A stretch of 64,000 nucleotides of DNA from an uncultured Actinomycetes bacterium (lineage in GTDB: Bacteria > Actinomycetota > Actinomycetes > Mycobacteriales > SCTD01). A program made the position numbers and the translations under genes. Where the stretch lies: NCBI GenBank assembly GCA_963784675.1, contig CAWASE010000013.1, positions 226,660-290,659 on the forward strand, in the 5' to 3' direction. Shown here one piece after another: positions 4,088 through 63,565 of the stretch. Position 1 is the stretch's first letter. Every line of letters begins with the position of its first letter. Under the pieces are notes generated by a model that did no database searches, was not told where the DNA came from, and saw only the letters and a program-made list of their open reading frames with translations.

Positions 4088-4869
4088 TCCTTCAGGTCGA
4101 CGACGTCCACCGCGTGCGCACCCTGACGCTGAACCGTCCTGAGCAGCTGAACGCGTTCAACGAGGCGCTCTACGACGCCACCGCCGACGCGCTGCTGGAG
4201 GCGGACGCCGATCCGTCGGTGGCCGTCGTGCTGCTGACCGGCAGCGGCCGGGCGTTCTGCGCCGGGACTGATCTGGGGGAGATGGCGACGCGGCTGAGCG
4301 ACGCCGACTTCCGGCCGGGGCGGCACGGTTTCACCGGGCTGCTCGATGCGCTGCAGAACCTGCGCAAGCCCTTGGTGCTGGCGGTGAACGGACTCGGTCT
4401 GGGGATCGGCGTCACCCTGGTCGGCTTCGCGGATCTCGTCTTCATGTCCGCCGAAGCGCGTTTCAAGTGCCCGTTCACCAGCCTGGGCGTCGCGCCGGAG
4501 GCAGCCTCGAGCTACCTTCTGCCGCTGCTCGTCGGCCGGCAGAACGCCGCCTGGACGTTGCTGTCCTCGGAGTGGATCAGCGCGGAGCAGGCCCGCGAGA
4601 TGGGGCTCGTCTGGCAGCTGTGCGACCCGTCGGACCTGCTCGCGACCGCACACCGGCACGCCGCGCTGCTGGCTGCGCGACCGCTGTCGAGCCTGATCGC
4701 CGTCAAGCAGGCCATGACCGCTCCGCTGCGGGAGCAGATCGCCCAAGCGCGGGTCCGCGAGAACGCCGCCTTCGCCGAGCTGATGGGCGGTCCGGCCAAC
4801 CTCGAAGCCCTCGCGGCCTTCGCCGAGGGACGGCCACCGGACTTCACCACCCTGCCCCCTGGTTGGTAG
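4084..4869 (+). CDS. enoyl-CoA hydratase/isomerase (crotonase) family protein
   Basis: LTLNRPEQLNAFN...VVLLTGSGRAFCAGTDL...AVNGLGLGIGVTL. ATGA start/stop overlap with the esterase gene. Confidence 0.85.
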   Translation: MILQVDDVHRVRTLTLNRPEQLNAFNEALYDATADALLEADADPSVAVVLLTGSGRAFCAGTDLGEMATRLSDADFRPGRHGFTGLLDALQNLRKPLVLAVNGLGLGIGVTLVGFADLVFMSAEARFKCPFTSLGVAPEAASSYLLPLLVGRQNAAWTLLSSEWISAEQAREMGLVWQLCDPSDLLATAHRHAALLAARPLSSLIAVKQAMTAPLREQIAQARVRENAAFAELMGGPANLEALAAFAEGRPPDFTTLPPGW

Positions 4870-5035: not shown

Positions 5036-7033
5036 ATGACCCTGCTGACCGCTGCGGCAGGACCGCCTGCCTACCTCACCCCGGTGGCCGCGCTGCTCGT
5101 CGCCGCCGCCCTGATCGGTTACGCGAGCGTGCGGCTGCGGGTCGTGCCGATCGTCGGGTTCCTGCTCGCCGGGGTGCTGCTGGGCCCCCACGCGGTCGGG
5201 CTGCTGCGCGAGCGCGAGGTGCTGGCGGCGGCCGCCGAGGTGGGGGTGATCCTGCTGCTGTTCACCATCGGCATCGAGTTCTCGCTGGGTCGGCTGAACA
5301 GCATCCGACGGCTCGTCCTGCTCGGCGGATCGGTGCAGGTGCTGGCCAGCATCGGTCTGGTCACCGGCCTGCTCACCGCCGTCGGCGTGGGCTGGCGCCC
5401 GGCGGTGTTCACGGGGTTCCTCGTCGCCCTGTCGTCCACGGCCATCGTGCTGAAGCTGCTGGGGGACCGTGGGGAGACGGGTTCGCGCGCAGGCCAGGCC
5501 GGGCTGGCGCTGCTGGTCTTCCAGGACCTCGCGGTCGTCGTGATGGTGCTGCTGCTGCCCGTCCTCGGCGGGCAGGGCGGGAGCGGGCTGCCGCAGATCG
5601 CGCGGGCGCTCGGCACCGCCGCGCTCGTCATCGCCGTGACCCTGCTGGCAGCGCGCCGGCTCGTCCCGCCCGTGCTGGAAGCCGTCGCGCGCTCGTGCTC
5701 GCCGGAGGTGTTCCTGCTGTCGGTGATCGCGCTGTGCCTCGGCACCGCGTACCTGACCTCGCTGGCCGGCGTGTCGGTGTCGCTCGGCGCGTTCCTCGCC
5801 GGTCTGGTCGTCAGCGAGTCCCGGCACAGCTCGCACGCCCTGTCGGAGGTGCTCCCGCTGCAGATCTTGTTCTCGGCGGTGTTCTTCGTGTCCGTCGGCA
5901 CGCTGCTGGACCTGCGCTTCCTGGTGCAGGAACCGCTGCTGGTGCTGGGTGCGATCGCCCTGGTCCTGGTCGTCAAGACCCTGACGACCTTCCTCGCGAC
6001 GCGGGTCGTCGGGCTACCCGTCGCTACCGGACTGACGCTCGCGCTGCTGCTGGCGCAGGTCGGCGAGTTCGCCTTCGTCCTGGACGCCGCGGGGCGGGCC
6101 GAGGGGCTGTCACCGGCCGGTCTCGGAGACGACGGAGCGCAGGCGTTCATCGCCGCGACGGTGCTGCTCCTGGTCGCGACGCCGGCCCTGGCCGCGTCCG
6201 GTCGCTCGCTCGCGGGGCGCCGGGACCGTCGACGCATGACGGTCGCCGCCCGGCTGCCGCAGCCGGCGCCGCCCCCGGACGGTCACGTGATCGTGTCGGG
6301 CTGGGGCGGCACGGCGCGCCACCTCGCCGGGGAGCTGCAGGCGGCGGGTGTCCCGCTGGTCGTGACCACCTTGAACCCGGACGGCGCGAAGGAGGCCGAG
6401 CTGCTCGGTCACACGGTCGTGCGCGGCGACTCCCGCCGGCCTCTCGTGCTGACCGAAGCCGGCTTGTCCACCGCCCGGCTCCTCGTCATCGGAGACGACG
6501 ATGCCGGGCAGACGGCCCTGATCGCGGCCGTGGTCGCGGCGCTGGCGCCAGGGGTGCCGATCATCGCGCGGGCTGACGTCGAGGACGTGATCGGCGACCT
6601 CGCGGAGGCCGGGGTCGGGCGGCTGGTGCTCAACGACCGCGCCGTGCAGCGGTCGTTCGCGCAGGCGGTGCGCGCGGCGCTCGGCAAGCCGCCGATGGCG
6701 CTGCCCGACGCTGCGGCGACCCGGATCGACACGACAGGTGTCGTGCGCTGGCGGGCGACCCCGGAGGAGTCCTGCGTCCACGCCGCGCAGACCCGACCCG
6801 TGGTGCCCCGCTCGCTGGGGTGCGGCGCCTGCCTGAAGCAGGGGCTGTCCTGGGTGCACCTGCGACTGTGCCTGACCTGCGGAGAGGTCGGCTGCTGCGA
6901 CTCCTCCCCGGGCCGGCACGCCACGGCGCACGCACAGGGCCACGTCGGGCACGACGTCATCACCTCGCTCGAGCCCGGCGAGAGCTGGGGCTGGTGCTAT
7001 CCCGACCAGCGTCGCCTCTCGCCGCAGGTCTAG
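5036..7033 (+). CDS. CPA2 (Kef-type) cation:proton antiporter with TrkA-N domain and C-terminal UBP-type zinc finger
   Basis: About 380 aa of polytopic membrane domain ([26 protein letters not shown]). A Rossmann-like [18 protein letters not shown] follows. The C-terminal about 85 aa read CVHAAQ...[62 protein letters not shown], the Cys/His pattern of zf-UBP. Confidence 0.85.
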
Positions 7034-21671: not shown

Positions 21672-21997
21672 CGACCCCCCCGCTGTCACCTTCGAGCGGC
21701 CCGCCGCTGTCCTCTCTGAGCGGCCCGCCGCTGTGGGAAGTCTTCGTGCGGAGCGCCCGCGGCCTCTCGCACACGCACGTCGGCAGCCTGCACGCCGCCG
21801 ACGCGCACCTCGCCCTGCGCAACGCCCGCGACGTGTACACGCGCCGGCAGGAGGGCGTCTCGATCTGGGTCGTCCCCGCCGCGGAGGTGGTGGCCAGCAG
21901 CCCGGACGAGAAGGATGCCTTCTTCGAACCGGCCGGTGACAAGGTCTACCGCCACCCGACCTTCTACGACGTCCCGGACGGGTTGACCCACCTGTGA
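21668..21997 (+). CDS. paaB: 1,2-phenylacetyl-CoA epoxidase subunit B
   Basis: [47 protein letters not shown]...[10 protein letters not shown]. The GTGA overlap start gives a longer N-terminus than I expect for PaaB, and that N-terminus contains a tandem duplication. Confidence 0.8.
21694..21734 (+). repeat. 24-nt-period tandem duplication (gagcggcccgccgctgt x2) inside the paaB 5' end
   Basis: The 17-mer gagcggcccgccgctgt occurs at 21694-21710 and 21718-21734. In the paaB frame it encodes SGPPLS/SGPPLW. Confidence 0.7.
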
Positions 21998-32961: not shown

Positions 32962-32990
32962 CCTGTGACGCGGCTGTGACGGGCCTGTGA
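32962..32990 (-). promoter_or_regulatory. three 11-nt-phased PhoP-box-like heptamers (TCACAGG, TCACAGC, TCACAGG on the minus strand)
   Basis: The + strand reads cctgtgacgcggctgtgacgggcctgtga. The heptamer T residues are at 32990, 32979 and 32968. The element lies 63 nt upstream of the ATG at 32898, in the same orientation as the gene. Confidence 0.55.
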
Positions 32991-37037: not shown

Positions 37038-37077
37038 TCACAGCAAGCTCACAGCAAAGGCCCAGACTGGTGACAGG
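37038..37077 (+). promoter_or_regulatory. PhoP-box direct repeats in the divergent promoter (TCACAGC-N4-TCACAGC, plus in-phase GCCCAG and TGACAGG)
   Basis: Read directly: gcTCACAGCaagcTCACAGCaaaggcccagactggTGACAGGcc. The heptamers start at 37038, 37049, (37060) and 37071. The element lies 66 nt upstream of the RR ATG and 89 nt from the vwa1 ATG. Confidence 0.65.
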
Positions 37078-37142: not shown

Positions 37143-37877
37143 ATGACCACCGCCACCCGCCCGGACAGCGAAGCCCGGCTGCTCGTCGTGGACGACGAGC
37201 CCAACATCCTGGAGCTGTTGTCGGTGAGCCTGCGCTTCGCTGGCTTCGACGTCGCGACGGCGACGAACGGCGTGGACGCCCTGAACCGGGCGCGCGAGTT
37301 CCGTCCCGAGCTGATGGTGCTCGACGTGATGATGCCCGGCATGGACGGGTTCGAGGTGGCCCGGCAGCTGCGCAGCACCGGCGACCAGGTGCCGGTGCTG
37401 TTCCTGACCGCCAAAGACGCCACCGAGGACCGTGTGCAGGGCCTGACCCTGGGCGGCGACGACTACGTCACCAAGCCGTTCAGCCTGGAGGAGGTCGTGG
37501 CCCGCATCCGCGCGGTGCTGCGTCGCACCGGCGGAGCGGCCGCACCGGACCCCGTCCAGAGCCGCTCGCGACTGTCCTACGCCGACATCGTCCTGGACGA
37601 CGACACGCACGAGGTGTGGAAGGGGGAGCAGGAGGTCGACCTGTCCCCGACGGAGTTCAACCTGCTGCGGTACCTGCTGCAGAACCCGGGTCGGGTGCTG
37701 TCCAAGCGGCAGATCCTCGAGCACGTCTGGAACTACGACTTCGGTGGTGACGGCAACGTCGTGGAGTCCTACATCTCCTACCTGCGCCGCAAGGTCGACA
37801 CCGCCGAGCCCCGGCTGCTGCACACGGTGCGCGGGGTCGGCTACGTCCTGCGGCTGCCGAAGTCGCCGGGCGCGTGA
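37143..37877 (+). CDS. phoP: OmpR/PhoB-family response regulator, closest in my reading to M. tuberculosis PhoP (Rv0757)
   Basis: ARLLVVDDEPNILELLSVSLRFAGFDVATATNG...MVLDVMMPGMDGFEV...LTLGGDDYVTKPFSLEEVVARIRAVLRR...LSPTEFNLLRYL...NVVESYISYLRRKVD...LHTVRGVGYVLR. This is near-collinear with Mtb PhoP as I remember it. GAGGAG RBS. Confidence 0.8.
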   Translation: MTTATRPDSEARLLVVDDEPNILELLSVSLRFAGFDVATATNGVDALNRAREFRPELMVLDVMMPGMDGFEVARQLRSTGDQVPVLFLTAKDATEDRVQGLTLGGDDYVTKPFSLEEVVARIRAVLRRTGGAAAPDPVQSRSRLSYADIVLDDDTHEVWKGEQEVDLSPTEFNLLRYLLQNPGRVLSKRQILEHVWNYDFGGDGNVVESYISYLRRKVDTAEPRLLHTVRGVGYVLRLPKSPGA

Positions 37878-39352
37878 GCCCCGGCCCGGACGTCGCTCCG
37901 AGGACGGGGCGGCTCTCGCGGGTGCCGCTGCGCACCCAGCTCGTGGCCCTGCTGCTCGGCACCGTCGCCCTGGTCGTCGCGCTGACCAGCGTCGCGGGCA
38001 GCGTCGCCCTGCACGACTACCTGGTGAACCGCATCGACGTGCAGCTCGCCGCGGCGCTCGAGGATCCCGGCGGCCCCGGCGGTGCCGGGTTCGGGCGACC
38101 GCGTCGCGGTGGGGGGCCCGACGAGGGCGGCCGGGACGTCGCCGTCACGACCCTCGACTACGACGCCGAGGGGCGGCTGTCCCCCCGCGACGTCGCTGAG
38201 CTCGCTGCCTTCGGCGGGCCGGAGGTCGACGACCCGACGGCGCTGCCCGACGGGCCCTCCGACGTGCCCGCCGTCTCCGGTGCCGGCAGCTGGCGGGTGC
38301 TGGCCGGCGACGGCTCGCGCACCGGCGGGGTCCGCGTGGTCGCCGTGTCGCTGGACGGGGTGCGCGACACCGGCTCGCAGCTGCTGCTCATCAACGCTGC
38401 CGTCGGCCTGATCGCCTTGGCCGGGGCGGGCGTGCTGGCGTGGGCCGCGGTGCGCCGCAGCCTCGCGCCGCTGGTGTCGGTGGAGGAGACCGCCGAGGCG
38501 ATCGCGGCAGGAGACCTGACCCGTCGGGTCCGCGAGGGAGACCCGCGCACCGAGGTCGGCTCGCTCGCTGCCTCTTTCAACAGCATGGTCGACCGCTTCG
38601 AGAGCGCGTATTCGGCCCAGCAGCAGTCGGAGTCGGCGGCGCGCGCGTCGGAGGAGCGGATGCGTCGTTTCGTCGGCGACGCCAGCCACGAGCTGCGCAC
38701 GCCGTTGACGTCCATCCGCGGGTTCGCCGAGCTCTTCCGGCAGGGAGCGGCGCGCGAGCCCGAACAGCTCGCCCGGGTGATGCGTCGCATCGAGGACGAG
38801 GCAGCCCGGATGGGGCTGCTGGTCGAGGACCTGCTGCTGCTCGCGCGGCTGGACCAGCAACGGCCGCTGCGACAGGAGACGGTCGACCTGCTGTCGGTCG
38901 TGGCCGACGTCGTGCACGACGCGGCGACGGTGTACGAGGACCACACCGTGCGCCTGGTCGCCCCCACCGGGCCGGGGCTGCCGGAGGTCGTCGGCGACGA
39001 CCCGCGGCTGCGGCAGGTGTTCAGCAACCTGGTCACCAACGCCGTCACGCACACCGCTCGCGGGACCACGGTCGACGTCGCGCTGCACGCCGACCACGTC
39101 ACCGTCACCGTCACCGTCACCGACGACGGAGCCGGCATGGCCCCGGACGTCGCGGAGCGCGTGTTCGAGCGGTTCTACCGCGCCGACGCCTCCCGCTCGC
39201 GCACGGCGCCGCAGGCCAGCGGCAGCGGCCTGGGCCTGTCCATCGTGGCTGCCCTGGTGGCGGCGCACGGGGGCAGCGTCGAGGTCACCAGCACGGTCGA
39301 CGTCGGTACGTGCTTCCTGGTGCGGCTGCCGGCCCGGCCCGTCCAGGACTGA
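37874..39352 (+). CDS. phoR: sensor histidine kinase (PhoR-like: TM-loop-TM, HAMP, HisKA, HATPase_c)
   Basis: GTGA overlap with the RR gene. Two TM segments flank an extracytoplasmic loop of about 150 aa. H-box RRFVGDASHELRTPLTSIRGFAELFRQGAA. DDGAGM and GSGLGLSIV. Confidence 0.8.
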   Translation: MSPGPDVAPRTGRLSRVPLRTQLVALLLGTVALVVALTSVAGSVALHDYLVNRIDVQLAAALEDPGGPGGAGFGRPRRGGGPDEGGRDVAVTTLDYDAEGRLSPRDVAELAAFGGPEVDDPTALPDGPSDVPAVSGAGSWRVLAGDGSRTGGVRVVAVSLDGVRDTGSQLLLINAAVGLIALAGAGVLAWAAVRRSLAPLVSVEETAEAIAAGDLTRRVREGDPRTEVGSLAASFNSMVDRFESAYSAQQQSESAARASEERMRRFVGDASHELRTPLTSIRGFAELFRQGAAREPEQLARVMRRIEDEAARMGLLVEDLLLLARLDQQRPLRQETVDLLSVVADVVHDAATVYEDHTVRLVAPTGPGLPEVVGDDPRLRQVFSNLVTNAVTHTARGTTVDVALHADHVTVTVTVTDDGAGMAPDVAERVFERFYRADASRSRTAPQASGSGLGLSIVAALVAAHGGSVEVTSTVDVGTCFLVRLPARPVQD

Positions 39353-39367
39353 CAGCCGGGTCACAGC
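39350..39367 (+). promoter_or_regulatory. PhoP-box-like direct repeat TGACAGC-N4-TCACAGC
   Basis: It starts at the phoR stop codon and lies 86 nt upstream of the ATG at 39453. The spacing is 11 nt, and the orientation is the same as at the phoP promoter. Confidence 0.45.
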
Positions 39368-57783: not shown

Positions 57784-58506
57784 ATGGGGCTGGGCAAGCG
57801 GTTGTCCGCGCTGTTCGCGCGCGAGCAGGACCCGCAGGAGGTCCTGGACGCGTCCTACGACCGGCAGCAGCAGCTCCTGCAGCAGACCCGTCGCGGCGCG
57901 GCCGACGTCGCGACGTCCGCACGCCGCCTCGAGCTGCAGCTGCGCCAGCTGGAGACCGAGGCCGACTCCCTGCACGACGACGCCACCGCTGCGGTGCGCG
58001 GTGGCGACGACGACCGTGCGCGCGCCCTGCTCACGCGCCGGGCCGGGCTGCTCCAGCAGGTCGAGGAGCTGCGCCCGCAGCAGCAGCAGCTGGCGACGCA
58101 GCAGGAGACGCTCGAGACCGCCGTGTCCAGGCTGGCGGCGAAGGTCGAGGCGTTCCGCGGGCAGAAGGAGGCGCTGTCGGCCGGCCTCACCGCCGCGCAG
58201 GCGCAGGAGAAGGTCGGACAGGCGCTGGCCGGCGTCGACGAAGAGCTGGGCGACGTGGGCTTCGCGCTGCAGCGGGCGCGCGAGCGCACCGACGCCGCGC
58301 AGGCCCGGGCCGGAGCGCTCGAGGAGCTCGCCGAGATCAGCAGCACCAGCCGCCTCACGCCGGGGGAGGCCGCGCAGCGCACCCTCGCCCAGCTCTCCGG
58401 CGGCGGTGTCGAGGACGAGCTGGCGGCGCTCCGAGGCGATCGCGCCCTCCCCGGCCCGCTCGGGCTGCCGCCGACCTCCACGACCAGCGCCCAGGAGCAG
58501 CAGTGA
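57784..58506 (+). CDS. pspA: PspA/IM30 family protein
   Basis: Coiled-coil sequence DPQEVLDASYDRQQQLLQQTRRGAADVATSARRLELQLRQLE...AKVEAFRGQKEALSA. Confidence 0.85.
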   Translation: MGLGKRLSALFAREQDPQEVLDASYDRQQQLLQQTRRGAADVATSARRLELQLRQLETEADSLHDDATAAVRGGDDDRARALLTRRAGLLQQVEELRPQQQQLATQQETLETAVSRLAAKVEAFRGQKEALSAGLTAAQAQEKVGQALAGVDEELGDVGFALQRARERTDAAQARAGALEELAEISSTSRLTPGEAAQRTLAQLSGGGVEDELAALRGDRALPGPLGLPPTSTTSAQEQQ

Positions 58507-58781
58507 TCGTCCGTATCCTCGGGGAGGGGCAGTTCGACCTGCCCGACAGCGCCCTCGACGCCCTCAACGCGCTCGACGCCGTGGCCGAGAGCGCGGTCGA
58601 CGCCGACGACCAGCCGGCCTTCACCGCAGCGCTCACGGCGCTGCTCGACGCGGTCCGCCGCCTCGGTGCGCCGACCGCTCCGGACCTGCTCGTCCCGTCG
58701 TCGTTCGTCCTGCCCCCTGCGGACGTCACCCTCGCCGAGGTGCGCCACCTGTTCGAGGCCGACGGGCTGGTGCCCGGATGA
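58503..58781 (+). CDS. small PspA-associated protein (PspAA-like)
   Basis: 92 aa: VIVRILGEGQFDLPDSALDALNALD... GTGA overlap with pspA and ATGA overlap with htpX. The family name is from memory and needs an HMM check. Confidence 0.6.
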   Translation: MIVRILGEGQFDLPDSALDALNALDAVAESAVDADDQPAFTAALTALLDAVRRLGAPTAPDLLVPSSFVLPPADVTLAEVRHLFEADGLVPG

Positions 58782-59725
58782 GCAGCCGCCGCGGCCGGTT
58801 CGCCGCCGACAGCGGGCTGACCTCGCGGATGCTGCTCGTGCTCTTCCTGCTCGGGCTGCTGTACGTCGTCGCGATCGGTGCGCTCATCGGCCTCGGGATC
58901 AGCCCGGTGGTGGTGCTCGTGGTGGTCGGCGGGTTCTTCGTCTTCCAGTACGTCGCCAGCGACAAGATCGCGCTGTACGCGATGAACGGTCGGCTGGTCG
59001 AGCCTGCGGAGGCCGCTGAGCTGCACGGGGTCATCGACCGGCTCTGCGCGCTGTCGGACACCCCGAAGCCGCGCGTGGCCGTCGCCGACAGCGACGTGCC
59101 CAACGCCTTCGCCACCGGGCGCAGCCCGTCCAAGGCCGTCGTCTGCGTGACCACCGGCCTGCTGCGGCGGCTCGAGCCGGACGAGCTGGAGGGCGTGCTC
59201 GCGCACGAGCTGTCGCACGTCGCGCACCGCGACGTCGCCGTGATGACCATCGCCTCCTTCCTCGGCGTCCTGTCCGGGCTCATCACCCGCTTCGTGCTGC
59301 AGTCGATGGCCTTCGGCGGCTTCGGCCAGGGCTACGGCGGTCGCGGCTACGGTCGCGACCGCAGCGACAACCGCGACAGCAACAGCGGCATCCCGATCGT
59401 CATCGCCGTGATCGTGGTGTCGGCCCTGGTCTACGCCGTCAGCTTCCTGCTCATCCGGGCGCTGTCGCGCTACCGCGAGCTGTCGGCCGACCGCACGGCC
59501 GCGCAGCTCACCGGCCGGCCGTCCTCGCTCGCCTCGGCCCTGACGAAGGTCACCGGCGAGATGGCCCGCGTCCCCACCCGCGACCTGCGCGAGGCCGAGC
59601 CGTTCAACGCCTTCTTCTTCACCCCGGCGCTGGCGCAGGGCTTCAGCCTGTCCTCGCTGTTCTCCACCCACCCGTCGCTGGACACCCGGCTGGCGCAGCT
59701 GGCGAAGATGTCGGCGACGTCATGA
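58778..59725 (+). CDS. htpX: zinc metalloprotease HtpX (M48)
   Basis: N-terminal TM pair, PNAFATG, HELSHVAHRD (HExxH), YRELSADRTAAQLTG, and THPSLDTRL. Confidence 0.9.
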   Translation: MSSRRGRFAADSGLTSRMLLVLFLLGLLYVVAIGALIGLGISPVVVLVVVGGFFVFQYVASDKIALYAMNGRLVEPAEAAELHGVIDRLCALSDTPKPRVAVADSDVPNAFATGRSPSKAVVCVTTGLLRRLEPDELEGVLAHELSHVAHRDVAVMTIASFLGVLSGLITRFVLQSMAFGGFGQGYGGRGYGRDRSDNRDSNSGIPIVIAVIVVSALVYAVSFLLIRALSRYRELSADRTAAQLTGRPSSLASALTKVTGEMARVPTRDLREAEPFNAFFFTPALAQGFSLSSLFSTHPSLDTRLAQLAKMSATS

Positions 59726-60291
59726 CGTTCCTCGACGCGCTGCTGGGGCGCAAGAAGCCGGTGCCGCCGGACCTCGACGCCCTGTTCGCGCTGCCGTCGG
59801 CGGCGGTCGGCCTGCAGGCCTCCCTGGCGCTCGTGCCGACCGGCCTCGGGTCGGTCTGCATCAAGCCGGTGGAGGGTGCCGCCTTCACCCGCACCCAGAC
59901 CGAGGTGCAGGCGCTGCTGCGCGTCGACGACACCTCCCGCGTCGACGTCACGCGCGACGACTACGGCTATGCCTGGACGACGGTCGCCGCCGACCGGAGC
60001 CGGCTGCCCGACGTCGTCAGTGCGCTGCACGCGGCCAACACCACCTACGCCCGCGACGAGTTCGGGACCGGCCTGCTCTGCTCGCTGGTGGGCTTCCAGG
60101 GCCCGGACGGGCGAGCGGTCGCGCTGGTCTACCTCTACAAGCGGGGGACGTTCTACCCGTTCGCCCCGCGCGGCGCACAGCAGCGCGACACGGCCCTGGA
60201 GCTGCAGGTGCGCGCCGCGATCGGTGCTGACCTCAAGATCGAGCCGGACCTGTCCCGCTGGTTCCCGGTCTGGGGTGCTCCGGGGCTGTGA
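59722..60291 (+). CDS. PspA-associated protein (PspAB-like), conserved hypothetical
   Basis: MTFLDALLGRKKPVPPDLDALFALPSAA...YLYKRGTFYPFAP... ATGA overlap with htpX. It is the last gene of the operon. Confidence 0.6.
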   Translation: MTFLDALLGRKKPVPPDLDALFALPSAAVGLQASLALVPTGLGSVCIKPVEGAAFTRTQTEVQALLRVDDTSRVDVTRDDYGYAWTTVAADRSRLPDVVSALHAANTTYARDEFGTGLLCSLVGFQGPDGRAVALVYLYKRGTFYPFAPRGAQQRDTALELQVRAAIGADLKIEPDLSRWFPVWGAPGL

Positions 60292-60380
60292 CGTCCCGGG
60301 CTGTGACGTCCCGGGCTGTGACGTCCGGGCGTGACGTTCGGGCTGTGACGTCCGCGCGGTGACGTCCGCGCGGTGACCCG
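60285..60380. repeat. 7-unit tandem repeat array (13-15-nt period, core GTGACG; four units carry GCTGTGA, which is TCACAGC on the minus strand)
   Basis: gctgtgacgtcccgg gctgtgacgtcccgg gctgtgacgtccgg gcgtgacgttcgg gctgtgacgtccgcgc ggtgacgtccgcgc ggtgacccg. It fills the whole gap between two convergent stop codons (60291 and 60381). Confidence 0.85.
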
Positions 60381-61256
60381 TCAGAGCGTCCCGACGTCGT
60401 GGCCGAGCAGCTGCAGCGCCAGCGCGCCGGCGCCGATCAGCGGCGCGTCCCGGCCGAGCCCCACCGGCGCGATGCGGCAGCCGTCCGTCGAGCTCAACCG
60501 GCTGGTCGCGCGTAGGCCCCGGCTGGCGGCCGAGAAGAACGGTCCGCCGTAGCCGAGGGCCACCGACCCGCCGATGGCGACCAGCGACAGGTCCAGCAGG
60601 TTCACCACCGACGCCAGCCCCTGACCCAGCAGCCGGCCGGCCCGCAGCACCTCCGCCATCGGCGCCCGGGCGGCCGGCGCGCCGGTGCGGGCGGCGATCG
60701 CCGTGCCGCTGATCTCGGCCTCCAGGCACCCCTGCCCGCCGCAGGAGCACGGCGCACCGTCCGGCACCACGACCACGTGACCGATGAAGCCGGCGTTGCC
60801 TGCCCGGCCGTGCAGCAGCCGTCCGTCGAGCACGAGCCCGCCGCCGACGCCGGTGGACACCACCATCGCCAGGTAGTCGCGGGTGCCTGCGGCCGCGCCC
60901 TTCCACCCCTCGCCGACGGCCAGCGCCTTCGCGTCGCCGTCGACGACCACCGGCATCCGGAGCGCCCGCTCCAGCCGGGCGTGCAGCGGGAACTGCCGCC
61001 AGGCGGGCATGTTCAGCGGCGAGACCGCCTCGCCTCCCCGGGTCATCGGACCCGTCGTCCCGACTCCGGCGGCCGCGACCCCCTCGGGCGAGACCTGCTG
61101 CACCGCTGACAGGACGGCGGCCAGCAGCACCTCGGGATCCTCGCCCCGCGGCGTCAGGGCGGTCGCCGAGCGGTGCAGGACACCGTCGCCGTCGAGGATG
61201 CCGGCGGCGATCTTCGTGGCGCCGATGTCGATCGCCAGGACGGTCTGCGCGGGCAC
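60381..61256 (-). CDS. ROK family sugar kinase
   Basis: LAIDIGATKIAAG, VVDGDAKALAVGE, GAGNAGFIGH, and zinc motif CSCGGQGCLE. Confidence 0.85.
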   Translation of the reverse strand: MPAQTVLAIDIGATKIAAGILDGDGVLHRSATALTPRGEDPEVLLAAVLSAVQQVSPEGVAAAGVGTTGPMTRGGEAVSPLNMPAWRQFPLHARLERALRMPVVVDGDAKALAVGEGWKGAAAGTRDYLAMVVSTGVGGGLVLDGRLLHGRAGNAGFIGHVVVVPDGAPCSCGGQGCLEAEISGTAIAARTGAPAARAPMAEVLRAGRLLGQGLASVVNLLDLSLVAIGGSVALGYGGPFFSAASRGLRATSRLSSTDGCRIAPVGLGRDAPLIGAGALALQLLGHDVGTL

Positions 61257-61284
61257 CCTCAGCGGGACGCCGGGCGAGACCGGC

Positions 61285-61512
61285 TCACTGCATCGCCTCC
61301 AGCATCCCCATCATGTCCTTGCAGGCCGGACAGACGGGGAACTTGTCGGGATCGCGGCCCGGCAGCCAGGTCTTGCCGCAGAGGGCCACCACCGGGACAC
61401 CGTCGACCGCGCTGCGCAGGATGTCCTCCTTGCGCACGTAGTGGCTGTAGCGCTCGTCGTCGCCGTCGTCCAGCCGTGGCTCGACGACAGGCCTGGTGTC
61501 CAGCTCGGTCAT
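61285..61512 (-). CDS. DUF3039 domain-containing protein
   Basis: ERYSHYVRKEDILRSAVDGVPVVALCGKTWLPGRDPDKFPVCPACKD. I recognise this as a small protein family conserved in actinobacteria. Confidence 0.75.
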   Translation of the reverse strand: MTELDTRPVVEPRLDDGDDERYSHYVRKEDILRSAVDGVPVVALCGKTWLPGRDPDKFPVCPACKDMMGMLEAMQ

Positions 61513-61527
61513 GCCGCTGATCCTAGG
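61513..61527 (-). promoter_or_regulatory. start-proximal motif CCTAGGATCAGCGGC (possible leaderless promoter), second copy
   Basis: It is identical to 42973-42987. The TAG of the motif is also the stop codon of the upstream GGDEF-EAL gene. Confidence 0.45.
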
Positions 61528-63565
61528 CCCGGGCCCCGGAGGCGGTCACGGGGACGGGGGGCGTGCGCAGCGGGCGCTGGTAGTCGCGCAGCCAGGGCCA
61601 CAGGGTCTCCGGCGGCATGGGGCGGGACAGGTGATAGCCCTGGATGACGTCGCAGCCCAGCGCCCGCAGCATCGACCACGTCGCAGCGTCCTCGACGCCT
61701 TCGGCCACCAGGCTCAGGCCCAGGTTGTGACCGAGCTCGATCGTCGAACGGACGATCACGGCGTCGTTGCTGTTGCTGGTCATGGCGAACACGAACGAGC
61801 GGTCGATCTTGAGCTCGTTGGCCTCCAGCCGCTTGAGATAGGCGAGCGAGGAGTAGCCGGTCCCGAAGTCGTCGATCGACAGCACGACCCCCAGGTCGCG
61901 CAGCAGCCCGAGCACGTTCATCGTCCGGGTGGGGTCGGCCATGATGGACGTCTCGGTGACCTCGAGCGTCAGCCGCGACGGTGGCACGCCCCACCGGCCG
62001 AGCAGCGAGGCCACCTGTCGGGGCAGGTCCAGGTCGGTCAGCAGCCGCACCGACAGGTTCACCGCGACGCCGAGGGCGTGGCCGGCGTCGTGCAGCTGGC
62101 GGGCCACCTGCAGCGACTGGTCCAGCACCTCCAGCGTCAGCGGGCCGATCAGCCCGGAGTTCTCGGCGATGGTGATGAACTCGTCCGGGTACACCAGGCC
62201 GCGCGCCGGGTGCTGCCAGCGGACGAGCGCCTCCAGCCCGACCAGCGCCCCGCCGTCGGCGGCACACTTGGGCTGGTAGTGCACGCGCAGCTCGCCCCGT
62301 TCGATGCCCTCGCGCAGCTGACCGAGCAGCGCCAGCTTCTCCAGGCTGTGCTGGTCCTCGCTGGCCGAGTAGACCTCGTAGCGCCCGCGGTGCTCCTTGG
62401 CCGAGTACAGCGCGACATCGGCCCGCTGCAGCAGCGTCGTCGCCTCGTTGCCGTGGTCGGGCGCCAGGGCGATACCGACGCTGGCCTGCACGTCCAGCCG
62501 CACCCCGTCGATCGTGAACGGTTGCGCCAGCGCCTGGACGATGCGGCGGGCGACGTCCTCGGCGTCGGCGAGCCCCGGCAGGTCGGTGGCCAGGACGGCG
62601 AACTCGTCGCCACCGAGGCGGGCGACGGAGTCCCCGTCGCGCAGGGCGTCGCGCAGGCGTCGGCCGACCTCGCACAGCAGCAGGTCGCCGACGTAGTGGC
62701 CCAGCGTGTCGTTGATCTCCTTGAAGTGGTCCAGGTCGATGAGCAGCACGGCGGTGCTGAGGCCGGACCGGCCGGCGTCGTCCAGCACCCGCGCCGTGCG
62801 CTGCTGGAGCATGACGCGGTTGGGCAGCCCGGTCAGCGCGTCGTGCAGCGACTCGCGCTCGCGGTCGGCGGCCAGCTTCGCGCTGCGGTGCACCGCGGCG
62901 ATGGGCAGCAGCATGAGCGGCAGCATGAGCAGCGAGAAGTCCAGCGCCACGATGACGACGGGGGCGAAGCTGAGCAGCACGCCCGACGTGGAGAGCTGGA
63001 AGCGCACGTCGTCACGCAGCAGCGGGACGATCGGCCGGTCCAGCCACAGCGCCACCACGATGCCGGTGAGGCCGTTGTTGACGACGAAGAAGACGATGCC
63101 GGCCGCCAGGGCGGGGGCGACGTCGGTCAGGCCGAAGGCGGTGTCGTCGGCCAGGTAGCTGCGGCCGGTGAGCAGGCAGAAGGCGAGCCGGGTCGCGGCC
63201 GCGCTGATCATCAGCTGGCTGATGTTGAAGGCGATCCGGCGCAGGTCCTTGCCGCGCCGCAGGTCGTCCCAGCCGGCGCTGAGGATCTGTGCGGGGATCA
63301 GCAGCCAGACCGGGCCCAGGACCGCTACGGCCAGGATGAAGGTCGCGGAGATGGTGACCTCGTCGGACTCCTCGTCACCCCGCGAGATCATGATCGGCTG
63401 GGACTCGCCGATCACCATGCAGGCGAGCAGGACGAGCACCGTCAGGCTGGGACGGGACACCCCCTCGCCGAGGATGCGGTGGCTGAGGTCGAGCAGGACC
63501 AGCGCGCCGCCGGTCAGGACGGCGCCGATGTACAGGGACAGCCGCGGGGGGACCCGGAGGGTCAT
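61523..63565 (-). CDS. membrane-anchored GGDEF-EAL (diguanylate cyclase/phosphodiesterase) protein
   Basis: N-terminal polytopic membrane domain of about 230 aa. RLGGDEFAVL (GGDEF). LEALVRW, DDFGTGYSSLAYLK and EGVE (EAL domain). Confidence 0.85.
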   Translation of the reverse strand: MTLRVPPRLSLYIGAVLTGGALVLLDLSHRILGEGVSRPSLTVLVLLACMVIGESQPIMISRGDEESDEVTISATFILAVAVLGPVWLLIPAQILSAGWDDLRRGKDLRRIAFNISQLMISAAATRLAFCLLTGRSYLADDTAFGLTDVAPALAAGIVFFVVNNGLTGIVVALWLDRPIVPLLRDDVRFQLSTSGVLLSFAPVVIVALDFSLLMLPLMLLPIAAVHRSAKLAADRERESLHDALTGLPNRVMLQQRTARVLDDAGRSGLSTAVLLIDLDHFKEINDTLGHYVGDLLLCEVGRRLRDALRDGDSVARLGGDEFAVLATDLPGLADAEDVARRIVQALAQPFTIDGVRLDVQASVGIALAPDHGNEATTLLQRADVALYSAKEHRGRYEVYSASEDQHSLEKLALLGQLREGIERGELRVHYQPKCAADGGALVGLEALVRWQHPARGLVYPDEFITIAENSGLIGPLTLEVLDQSLQVARQLHDAGHALGVAVNLSVRLLTDLDLPRQVASLLGRWGVPPSRLTLEVTETSIMADPTRTMNVLGLLRDLGVVLSIDDFGTGYSSLAYLKRLEANELKIDRSFVFAMTSNSNDAVIVRSTIELGHNLGLSLVAEGVEDAATWSMLRALGCDVIQGYHLSRPMPPETLWPWLRDYQRPLRTPPVPVTASGARA

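Follow-up and report, generated by a model that had tools for sequence, protein, structure and literature searches.

Why is the 89-nt gap between pspAB, on the plus strand, and a convergent ROK-family gene, on the minus strand, filled entirely by a short tandem repeat, where did this repeat come from, and does it serve as a regulatory site, as a structure at the ends of transcripts or for nothing at all? The locus lies in the window, by which we mean the whole 64-kb stretch of DNA that was analysed, and pspAB is there the final gene of pspA-pspAA-htpX-pspAB. The flanking genes are given here with the basis on which each was assigned.

57784-58506, plus strand: PspA (Pfam).
58506-58781, plus strand: PspAA-like ORF, assigned from its translation and its position in the operon.
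About 58790-59725, plus strand: M48/HtpX (Pfam).
59722-60291, plus strand: PspAB, 189 aa, ending WFPVWGAPGL-stop (Pfam PF22742, E=6.8e-67).
60381-61256, minus strand: convergent ROK-family gene, 291 aa (Pfam PF00480, E=1.3e-50, residues 7-282).
61285-61512, minus strand: DUF3039 (Pfam).
61523-63565, minus strand: GGDEF-EAL (Pfam).

The ROK protein has no N-terminal HTH and carries the zinc motif CSCGGQGCLE (CxCGxxGCxE), which points to a kinase-type protein rather than a regulator. An operator for this 291-aa, kinase-type protein without an HTH was considered for the array and ruled out, as was a coding repeat, the frames that cross the array being spurious ORFs.

Direct reading of 60279-60378 gives seven head-to-tail units with lengths of 15, 15, 13, 14, 14, 14 and 14 nt, and TRF reports a single array at 60283-60377 (period 14, 6.7 copies, 91% matches) with a score of 130, the top score within the window, where the runner-up reaches 83. 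With at least three head-to-tail copies, a unit in the range of about 10-100 bp and high identity between copies, the repeat has the form of a slippage array. Its units are the following.

60279-60293, plus strand: unit 1, the founder copy, TCCGGGGCTGTGACG, 15 nt, with the pspAB codons CCG GGG CTG and the stop codon TGA at 60289-60291.
60294-60308, plus strand: unit 2, TCCCGGGCTGTGACG, 15 nt.
60309-60323, plus strand: unit 3, TCCCGGGCTGTGACG, 15 nt, the same sequence as unit 2.
60324-60336, plus strand: unit 4, TCCGGGCGTGACG, 13 nt in the window; TCCGGGCGGTGACG, 14 nt in the independent contig L001.
60337-60350, plus strand: unit 5, TTCGGGCTGTGACG, 14 nt.
60351-60364, plus strand: unit 6, TCCGCGCGGTGACG, 14 nt.
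60365-60378, plus strand: unit 7, TCCGCGCGGTGACC, 14 nt, with a degenerate end.

Unit 1 corresponds to the conserved 3' end of pspAB (Pro-Gly-Leu-stop, CCSGGSCTSTGA), and the ROK stop codon (60381-60383, minus strand) stands 2 nt past unit 7. An earlier note on this DNA had described a seven-unit array between the psp operon and the ROK gene, with the pspAB stop codon inside its first unit, and both TRF and direct reading bear this out; the periods that it gave agree exactly with the spacings of 15, 15, 13, 14, 14 and 14 nt between the GTGAC starts at 60288, 60303, 60318, 60331, 60345, 60359 and 60373. It had also placed a GACGTC-bearing core in each unit, which holds for five of the seven, unit 4 reading GACGTT and unit 7 GACCCG. 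The word GTGACGTCC occurs seven times in the window, five of them inside the array, against 1.7 expected, and GGCTGTGAC (minus strand GTCACAGCC) occurs four times in the array and once more at 32972-32980. The 9-10-mer said to be shared with phased boxes elsewhere does recur, as the 10-mer GGCTGTGACG, at 32972-32981, one base away from the 32973-32981 first given. Units 2 and 3 are identical, units 6 and 7 are nearly so and units 4 and 5 are intermediate, a pattern that looks like the usual local turnover of a minisatellite.

The source appears to be a metagenome-assembled genome, and a spurious repeat expansion is one way in which such an array might enter an assembly. Its sequence is, however, reproduced in L001, an independent 1,133-nt short-read contig from the same population that was found via the ROK protein. 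L001 is identical to the window (100% over about 1.13 kb) save for one extra C in unit 4, where CACCGCCC stands against CACGCCC, and with this C the unit is 14 nt long; it follows from this indel that the 13-nt unit of the window may be a homopolymer error or a micro-variant. From unit 7 to approximately unit 2 the contig agrees with the window at every base except for the indel, and it stops within the array only at a point where a run of two identical units leaves the assembly graph ambiguous. Exact-protein look-ups with PspAB and DUF3039 found no further contig of this population on record, and the ROK protein alone led to L001. The array is not an assembly artefact, and we give next to no credence to a spurious expansion, for all that the source seems to be a MAG and the two sequences differ by 1 nt in unit 4.

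To trace the origin of the units we turned to 86 other actinobacterial pspAB loci, made up of 80 species genomes, which are among the PspAB matches listed (the best of those only about 60% identical), and six contigs from the nearest relatives. The source lineage is thinly represented in databases: apart from one 100% hit, on a 430-kb contig, the closest relative found by a protein search has a PspAB of 73% aa identity. The array is missing from every one of these loci (0/86), as a recent and lineage-specific origin would have it. Nearly all end in WGAPGL-stop, encoded GCN CCS GGS CTS TGA. In the nearest relatives, L205 and L204, the array-free gene ends read CCCGGGCTCTGAC and CCCGGCCTCTGAC, the termini being ...GCGCCCGGGCTCTGAC and ...GCGCCCGGCCTCTGAC, respectively, with the repeat absent. 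Since units 2 and 3 (CCCGGGCTGTGAC) match these array-free ends, they are copies of the ancestral gene terminus, that is, of Pro-Gly-Leu-stop plus a few bases. Units 6 and 7, with their CCGCGCGG spacer, have diverged from units 1-3 and may have a separate origin. Among the close relatives the gene downstream of pspAB is in turn DUF3039, YflT, an unnamed convergent gene or a co-directional gene, and with a different neighbour in each of them the pspAB/ROK junction would itself seem to be lineage-specific.

The relatives also show what kind of sequence was copied. When the span from -24 to +40 around the pspAB stop was folded at each of the 87 loci, the window included, 21 of them (the window counted) gave a hairpin of 5 bp or more with the stop codon in its loop. 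These hairpins are mostly from Streptomyces, with stems of up to 15 bp; that of L078 has -32.1 kcal/mol (z -4.6) and that of L036 -36.9 kcal/mol (z -5.4). The 5' arm is coding (Gly-Ala-Pro-Gly codons), the 3' arm is not, and covariation between the two is seen at the wobble positions. Pairs at the Gly wobble position are C-G in 11, T-A in 3 and A-T in 2 cases, at the Ala position C-G in 11 and G-C in 5, and at the Pro position C-G in 14 and G-C in 6, counts that rest on the MFE fold of each individual sequence and so are biased toward paired states, in a register that differs between groups. RNAalifold, run on an ungapped alignment of the 21 pspAB ends, returned no single consensus structure, because the 3' arms sit in differing registers. 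A structure is thus kept at the orthologous position with compensatory changes in 21/87 loci, its register varying. An Rfam 15 scan of 59500-61500 with E up to 1 gave nothing at the array, and two sub-threshold chance matches outside it.

Within the array itself, neighbouring units pair with each other, and up to three non-overlapping hairpins of 7-8 bp can form on either strand. The main ones are given below.

60277-60301, plus strand: hairpin H1, stem GC.CCGGGGC / GUCCCGG.GC, loop UGUGAC including the pspAB stop; -16.4 kcal/mol.
60307-60331, unstranded: hairpin H3 (units 3 and 4), stem CCCGGGC / GUCCGGG, loop UGUGAC; -14.9 kcal/mol on the plus strand.
60349-60376, unstranded: hairpin H6/7, stem CCGCGCGG / CCGCGCGG, 8 bp, all G+C and perfectly paired; loop of 6 nt.

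The equivalent of H3 formed by units 2 and 3 has -13.4 kcal/mol on the minus strand, and H6/7, which has -18.0 kcal/mol as plus-strand RNA and -17.4 as minus-strand RNA, is the first structure that the ROK transcript reaches, 5 nt past the ROK stop. Folding of both strands had been proposed in the earlier note, and hairpins of -15 to -18 kcal/mol are indeed found on both. The array region is moderately more stable than its shuffles, with a fold z of about -2.5 on either strand. With -15 to -18 kcal/mol, the hairpins of the window fall far short of the stability of the relatives' single hairpins (-32 to -37 kcal/mol). H1 is presumably the counterpart of the relatives' stop-in-loop hairpin; because its register is 1-2 nt off the Streptomyces type, we infer their homology rather than claim it outright.

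Based on these observations, we think it probable that in the array, a short tandem repeat confined to this lineage, replication slippage has amplified the hairpin module at the pspAB stop, and that the array's role, if it has one, is that of a transcript-end structure. Many actinobacteria have the Gly-Ala-Pro-Gly codons as the 5' arm of a small G+C-rich hairpin, with Leu-stop in the loop and the 3' arm a short way downstream, and the amplified 15-bp module would correspond to one stem arm plus the loop. The arms of the window's stop-codon hairpin are the palindrome CCCGGG and, being palindromic, are at the same time 6-nt direct repeats 15 nt apart. Closely spaced direct repeats are the classical substrate for slipped-strand mispairing. 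Slippage between the CCCGGG repeats could thus have added copies of CCCGGGCTGTGACGT, and these would have been tolerated, with the PspAB protein unchanged, because each duplication carries the stop codon. Subsequent point changes and a duplication confined to the diverged units 6 and 7 would then have led to the present seven units. The likeliest role, if there is any, would be that of a structure between the ends of pspAB and the ROK gene, as the single hairpin would be in relatives, acting either in termination that needs no U-tract or in shielding transcripts from 3' exonucleases. Copies beyond the first are probably carried along neutrally.

Duplication of a gene's end is not peculiar to this lineage. 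Independent duplications of the pspAB terminus were found in L024 (14 nt, x3.6), L026 (16 nt, x2), L034 (17 nt, x3.1), L075 (18 nt, x2.4) and L015 (GGCCTGTGAC, x3), and L013 carries, 21 nt downstream, a copy of 33 nt that reads WFPVWDAPGP-stop. At 5/87 pspAB loci the terminal 12-mer is found again, with up to 2 mismatches, in the 120 nt that follow, where the rate at which the same queries match other parts of the loci would predict 0.74 (Poisson P = 0.001). The effect extends to other genes, since 3.1% of about 700 GC3-supported gene ends have such a copy, against 0.85% by chance (P = 3e-7), and TRF arrays run across the stop codon at 17/731 gene ends (about 2%) in these genomes. Such arrays occur at 5/83 pspAB ends and at 12/648 others (Fisher P = 0.03), and thus pspAB is at most a mild hotspot of duplication. 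By a rough estimate from reasoning, some 15-25% of the tolerated 15-nt duplications that land at random in a short intergenic region or the last few codons would take in the stop, a neutral expectation of about the same order as what is observed. A test for arrays within long ORFs proved unreliable in high-G+C DNA and was excluded from the results.

The earlier note had put the PhoP heptamer TCACAGC at the head of its description. Four units do carry it on the minus strand, and four exact copies were counted in the array. TCACAGC is, however, the reverse complement of G-CTG-TGA, so that each copy repeats the Leu-stop codons of pspAB, and CTGTGA ends pspAB in many other genera too. Across the window the heptamer is no commoner than expected (10 found, 10.8 expected). 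The heptamers of the array are a by-product of copied Leu-stop codons. Their spacing, too, tells against a PhoP site. For the PhoP of M. tuberculosis a 4-bp spacer is strictly required, a change of 1 bp sharply lowering affinity, and half-site binding is >60-fold weaker (PMC4832192). The array shares with that box the identical 7-bp motif, four times and in direct orientation, but here the heptamers stand 15 nt apart, which leaves a spacer of 8 bp (7 bp for one pair), they lie downstream of both genes and their motif is explained by Leu-stop. A search of the array for TCACAGC-N4-TCACAGC with up to 3 mismatches matched no position. With an 8-bp spacer in place of the required 4 bp, PhoP-type dimer binding, and with it canonical PhoP control, is not supported at the array; a PhoP-like regulator may bind weakly as a monomer.

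That the array might bind or titrate the PhoP-like response regulator encoded at 37143-37877, by way of its four minus-strand heptamers, has in its favour that an OmpR-family regulator is encoded at that position, with a kinase at 37874-39352. Genuine N4 boxes with 0-1 mismatch are present elsewhere in the window, at 37038-37055 (perfect, 88 nt upstream of the regulator gene), 32962-32990 (three phased boxes) and 39350-39367, and it is with the second of these that the array shares its 10-mer. We nevertheless consider such a site very improbable in view of the spacer and the weakness of half sites set out above; moreover, a site downstream of both genes has no promoter to regulate. A CRP-type site, TGTGA-N6-TCACA, was ruled out, the half-sites of the array being direct only, with none inverted. 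An antisense or divergent promoter firing into pspAB/htpX or the ROK gene, the former of which the earlier note had also envisaged, is harder still to credit. A scan of the array for sigma-70-type promoters gave 0 sites, and neither strand of 60279-60380 contains a TA dinucleotide, so that the actinobacterial -10 element TANNNT cannot occur there.

There is more to be said for a terminator. Stable G+C-rich stem-loops lie at or just past the stop (H1, H3 and H6/7), and the suggestion of a multi-hairpin bidirectional terminator stands as far as the hairpins on both strands, the stop-in-loop hairpin of the relatives and its covariation are concerned, but not as regards a U-tract. By terminator scan and direct reading, no U-tract follows any hairpin of the array, in which the longest T run is 2, and a canonical intrinsic terminator is therefore not present. 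Hairpins without U-tracts are commonly predicted as terminators in high-G+C actinobacteria, and their activity is disputed. 'I-shaped' putative terminators, G+C-rich and without a U-tract, have reportedly been described at actinobacterial gene ends. The array resembles them in that its G+C-rich hairpins stand at or right after the stop, between convergent genes, can fold on both strands and have a counterpart kept with compensatory changes at orthologous pspAB loci. In contrast to their one long stem, the array offers several short (7-8 bp) alternative hairpins, predicted to form from a repeat. A hairpin or terminator structure is thus a plausible reading of the predicted folds.

If the array were a purely neutral slippage VNTR, its hairpins would be incidental to the presence of CCCGGG, GACGTC and CCGCGCGG, all palindromic, in the unit, and the absence of the array from all 86 relatives, the stop-spanning repeats at about 2% of gene ends, the missing U-tract and a fold z of only about -2.5 are all in keeping with this. 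We regard such neutrality as possible, though on the whole unlikely, for roughly one pspAB locus in four retains the stop-in-loop hairpin, with compensatory changes, from which it follows that some structure there appears to be selected, and the array is the only candidate structure in the gap. A bolder proposal, namely that the pspAB end is a recurrent hotspot where the stop-in-loop hairpin is amplified independently across actinobacterial lineages, and that its copy number is under selection as a tunable insulator or terminator separating the envelope-stress psp operon from the convergent gene, rather than being neutral debris of slippage, strikes us as doubtful.

As to its class, the array is an intergenic minisatellite derived from a transcript-end hairpin, an element of an already known kind. 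The earlier note had offered a VNTR/MIRU-like slippage array as one reading. The VNTR half of that reading fits units that copy the pspAB terminus and an array missing from every relative; the MIRU half does not, as the units are 13-15 nt rather than 40-100 nt long and are not dispersed, the 64 kb containing no more than two isolated copies of the 9-mer core outside the array, a number at the level of chance. Among bacterial minisatellite loci are the MIRU-VNTRs of Mycobacterium tuberculosis. Like them, the array consists of head-to-tail intergenic repeats in an actinobacterium, is lineage-specific and would be generated by slippage, and it sits at a gene junction with its first unit overlapping the upstream stop codon. 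Unlike those loci, which form a dispersed family, it is a single locus in 64 kb, its unit is demonstrably the neighbouring gene's own terminus, and no copy-number polymorphism was seen in the one partial second sequence (L001). Literature on PspAB with PspAA and HtpX, and on the overlap of MIRU and stop codon at senX3, yielded nothing usable.

The biological reach of one more intergenic minisatellite is small. The locus is nonetheless a worked example of how a repeat may be born, in which palindromic hairpin arms double as direct repeats and duplications that include the stop spare the protein, and it is a caution for the reading of motifs, a regulator's heptamer appearing here four times from nothing but a copied Leu-stop codon pair. 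The conserved stop-in-loop hairpin of pspAB, together with stop-spanning repeats at roughly 2% of gene ends, may aid the annotation of 3' ends in actinobacteria.

When metagenomes were scanned for arrays built on the GTGACGTYC core, >120 were returned, heterogeneous in G+C (0.35-0.77), period (13-16) and spacer, none of which adjoins a PspAB or ROK gene. A single dispersed repeat family or a shared binding motif was rejected, these arrays being heterogeneous and unrelated. Several of them begin on stop codons, namely those of the genes for RNase PH (L094), ribosomal protein S7 (L181), IMP dehydrogenase (L197) and DUF202 (L145).

Six further actinobacterial lineages carry independent tandem duplications of the pspAB terminus, each of which takes in the stop codon. 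The duplications, in the coordinates of the pspAB loci fetched for comparison, are as follows:

L024, 4548-4598, period of 14 nt
L026, 4570-4601, period of 16 nt
L034, 4567-4618, period of 17 nt
L075, 4554-4596, period of 18 nt
L015, about 4553-4610, a GGCCTGTGAC triplet
L013, about 4586-4618, a 33-nt copy

Among arrays called by TRF, those spanning a stop codon were found at 5 of the 83 pspAB ends compared to 12 of the 648 other gene ends (P = 0.03), a mild enrichment for terminus duplication at pspAB over other genes. Tandem arrays of 13-16 nt also start exactly at the stop codons of four other genes, on unrelated metagenome contigs from a scan for arrays with the 9-mer core of the window's array, and the unit in each of them is a copy of the last 2-3 codons of its gene together with the stop:

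L094, about 850-930, on the RNase PH stop codon
L181, about 5500-5620 in reverse-complement coordinates, minus strand, on the ribosomal protein S7 stop codon
L197, 6237-6300, on the IMP dehydrogenase stop codon
L145, 1215-1270, on a DUF202 gene's stop codon

The end of pspAB is also structured in relatives. At approximately 20 Streptomyces and Actinomadura loci, including L068, L050, L021, L031, L040 and the two listed here, the stop codon lies in the 7-nt loop of a strong hairpin, with stems of up to 15 bp and energies of -32 to -37 kcal/mol:

L078, 4566-4600, stop-in-loop hairpin
L036, 4566-4602, stop-in-loop hairpin

Codons for Gly-Ala-Pro-Gly form the 5' arm, and their wobble positions show covariation with the 3' arm, which is non-coding. 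The hairpin looks like a conserved structure at the transcript end that overlaps the coding sequence. In the minimum free energy fold of the window's plus strand, the last pspAB codons (60271-60284, UGGGGUGCUCCGGG) pair with 60380-60393, the reverse complement of the last ROK codons. This pairing would place one long-range stem around the whole array. It makes use of G-U pairs and has probably arisen by chance. L001, a short-read contig from the same population, differs from the window by one base in a C homopolymer (window 60330-60331, L001 1099-1101) and is otherwise identical; the assembly of the window may carry a consensus error at this point.

PhoP-type boxes and a two-component system lie elsewhere in the window:

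32962-32990, three PhoP-type boxes with 11-nt phasing
37038-37055, perfect direct repeat TCACAGC-AAGC-TCACAGC, matching the M. tuberculosis PhoP-type box
37143-37877, OmpR-family response regulator
37874-39352, its partner histidine kinase
39350-39367, pair of heptamers with one mismatch, on the histidine-kinase stop

The perfect box is separated by 88 nt from the regulator gene downstream. Taken together, the gene pair and the boxes look like an autoregulated PhoPR-like system with targets nearby. Within the kinase gene there is also a perfect hexamer run, CGTCAC x4.3 (39097-39122).

In L082 (4001-4851), a contig of a 70%-identical relative, pspAB and DUF3039 are directly convergent across a 44-nt gap, whereas in the window (60381-61512) the ROK kinase gene separates the two. 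Either this gene was inserted in the window's lineage, then, or the relative has lost it. Two other repeats were observed. Streptomyces sp. NPDC050287 (L049) carries a 16-nt x 6.9 array, TTCGGTGTGCGTGACT, at 5136-5247, just upstream of a gene start; its pspAB ends about 550 nt before the array, whose sequence bears no relation to that of the array in the window. The window itself has a 24-nt x2.5 repeat, CCCGCCGCTGTCACCTCCGAGCGG, at 21676-21734.
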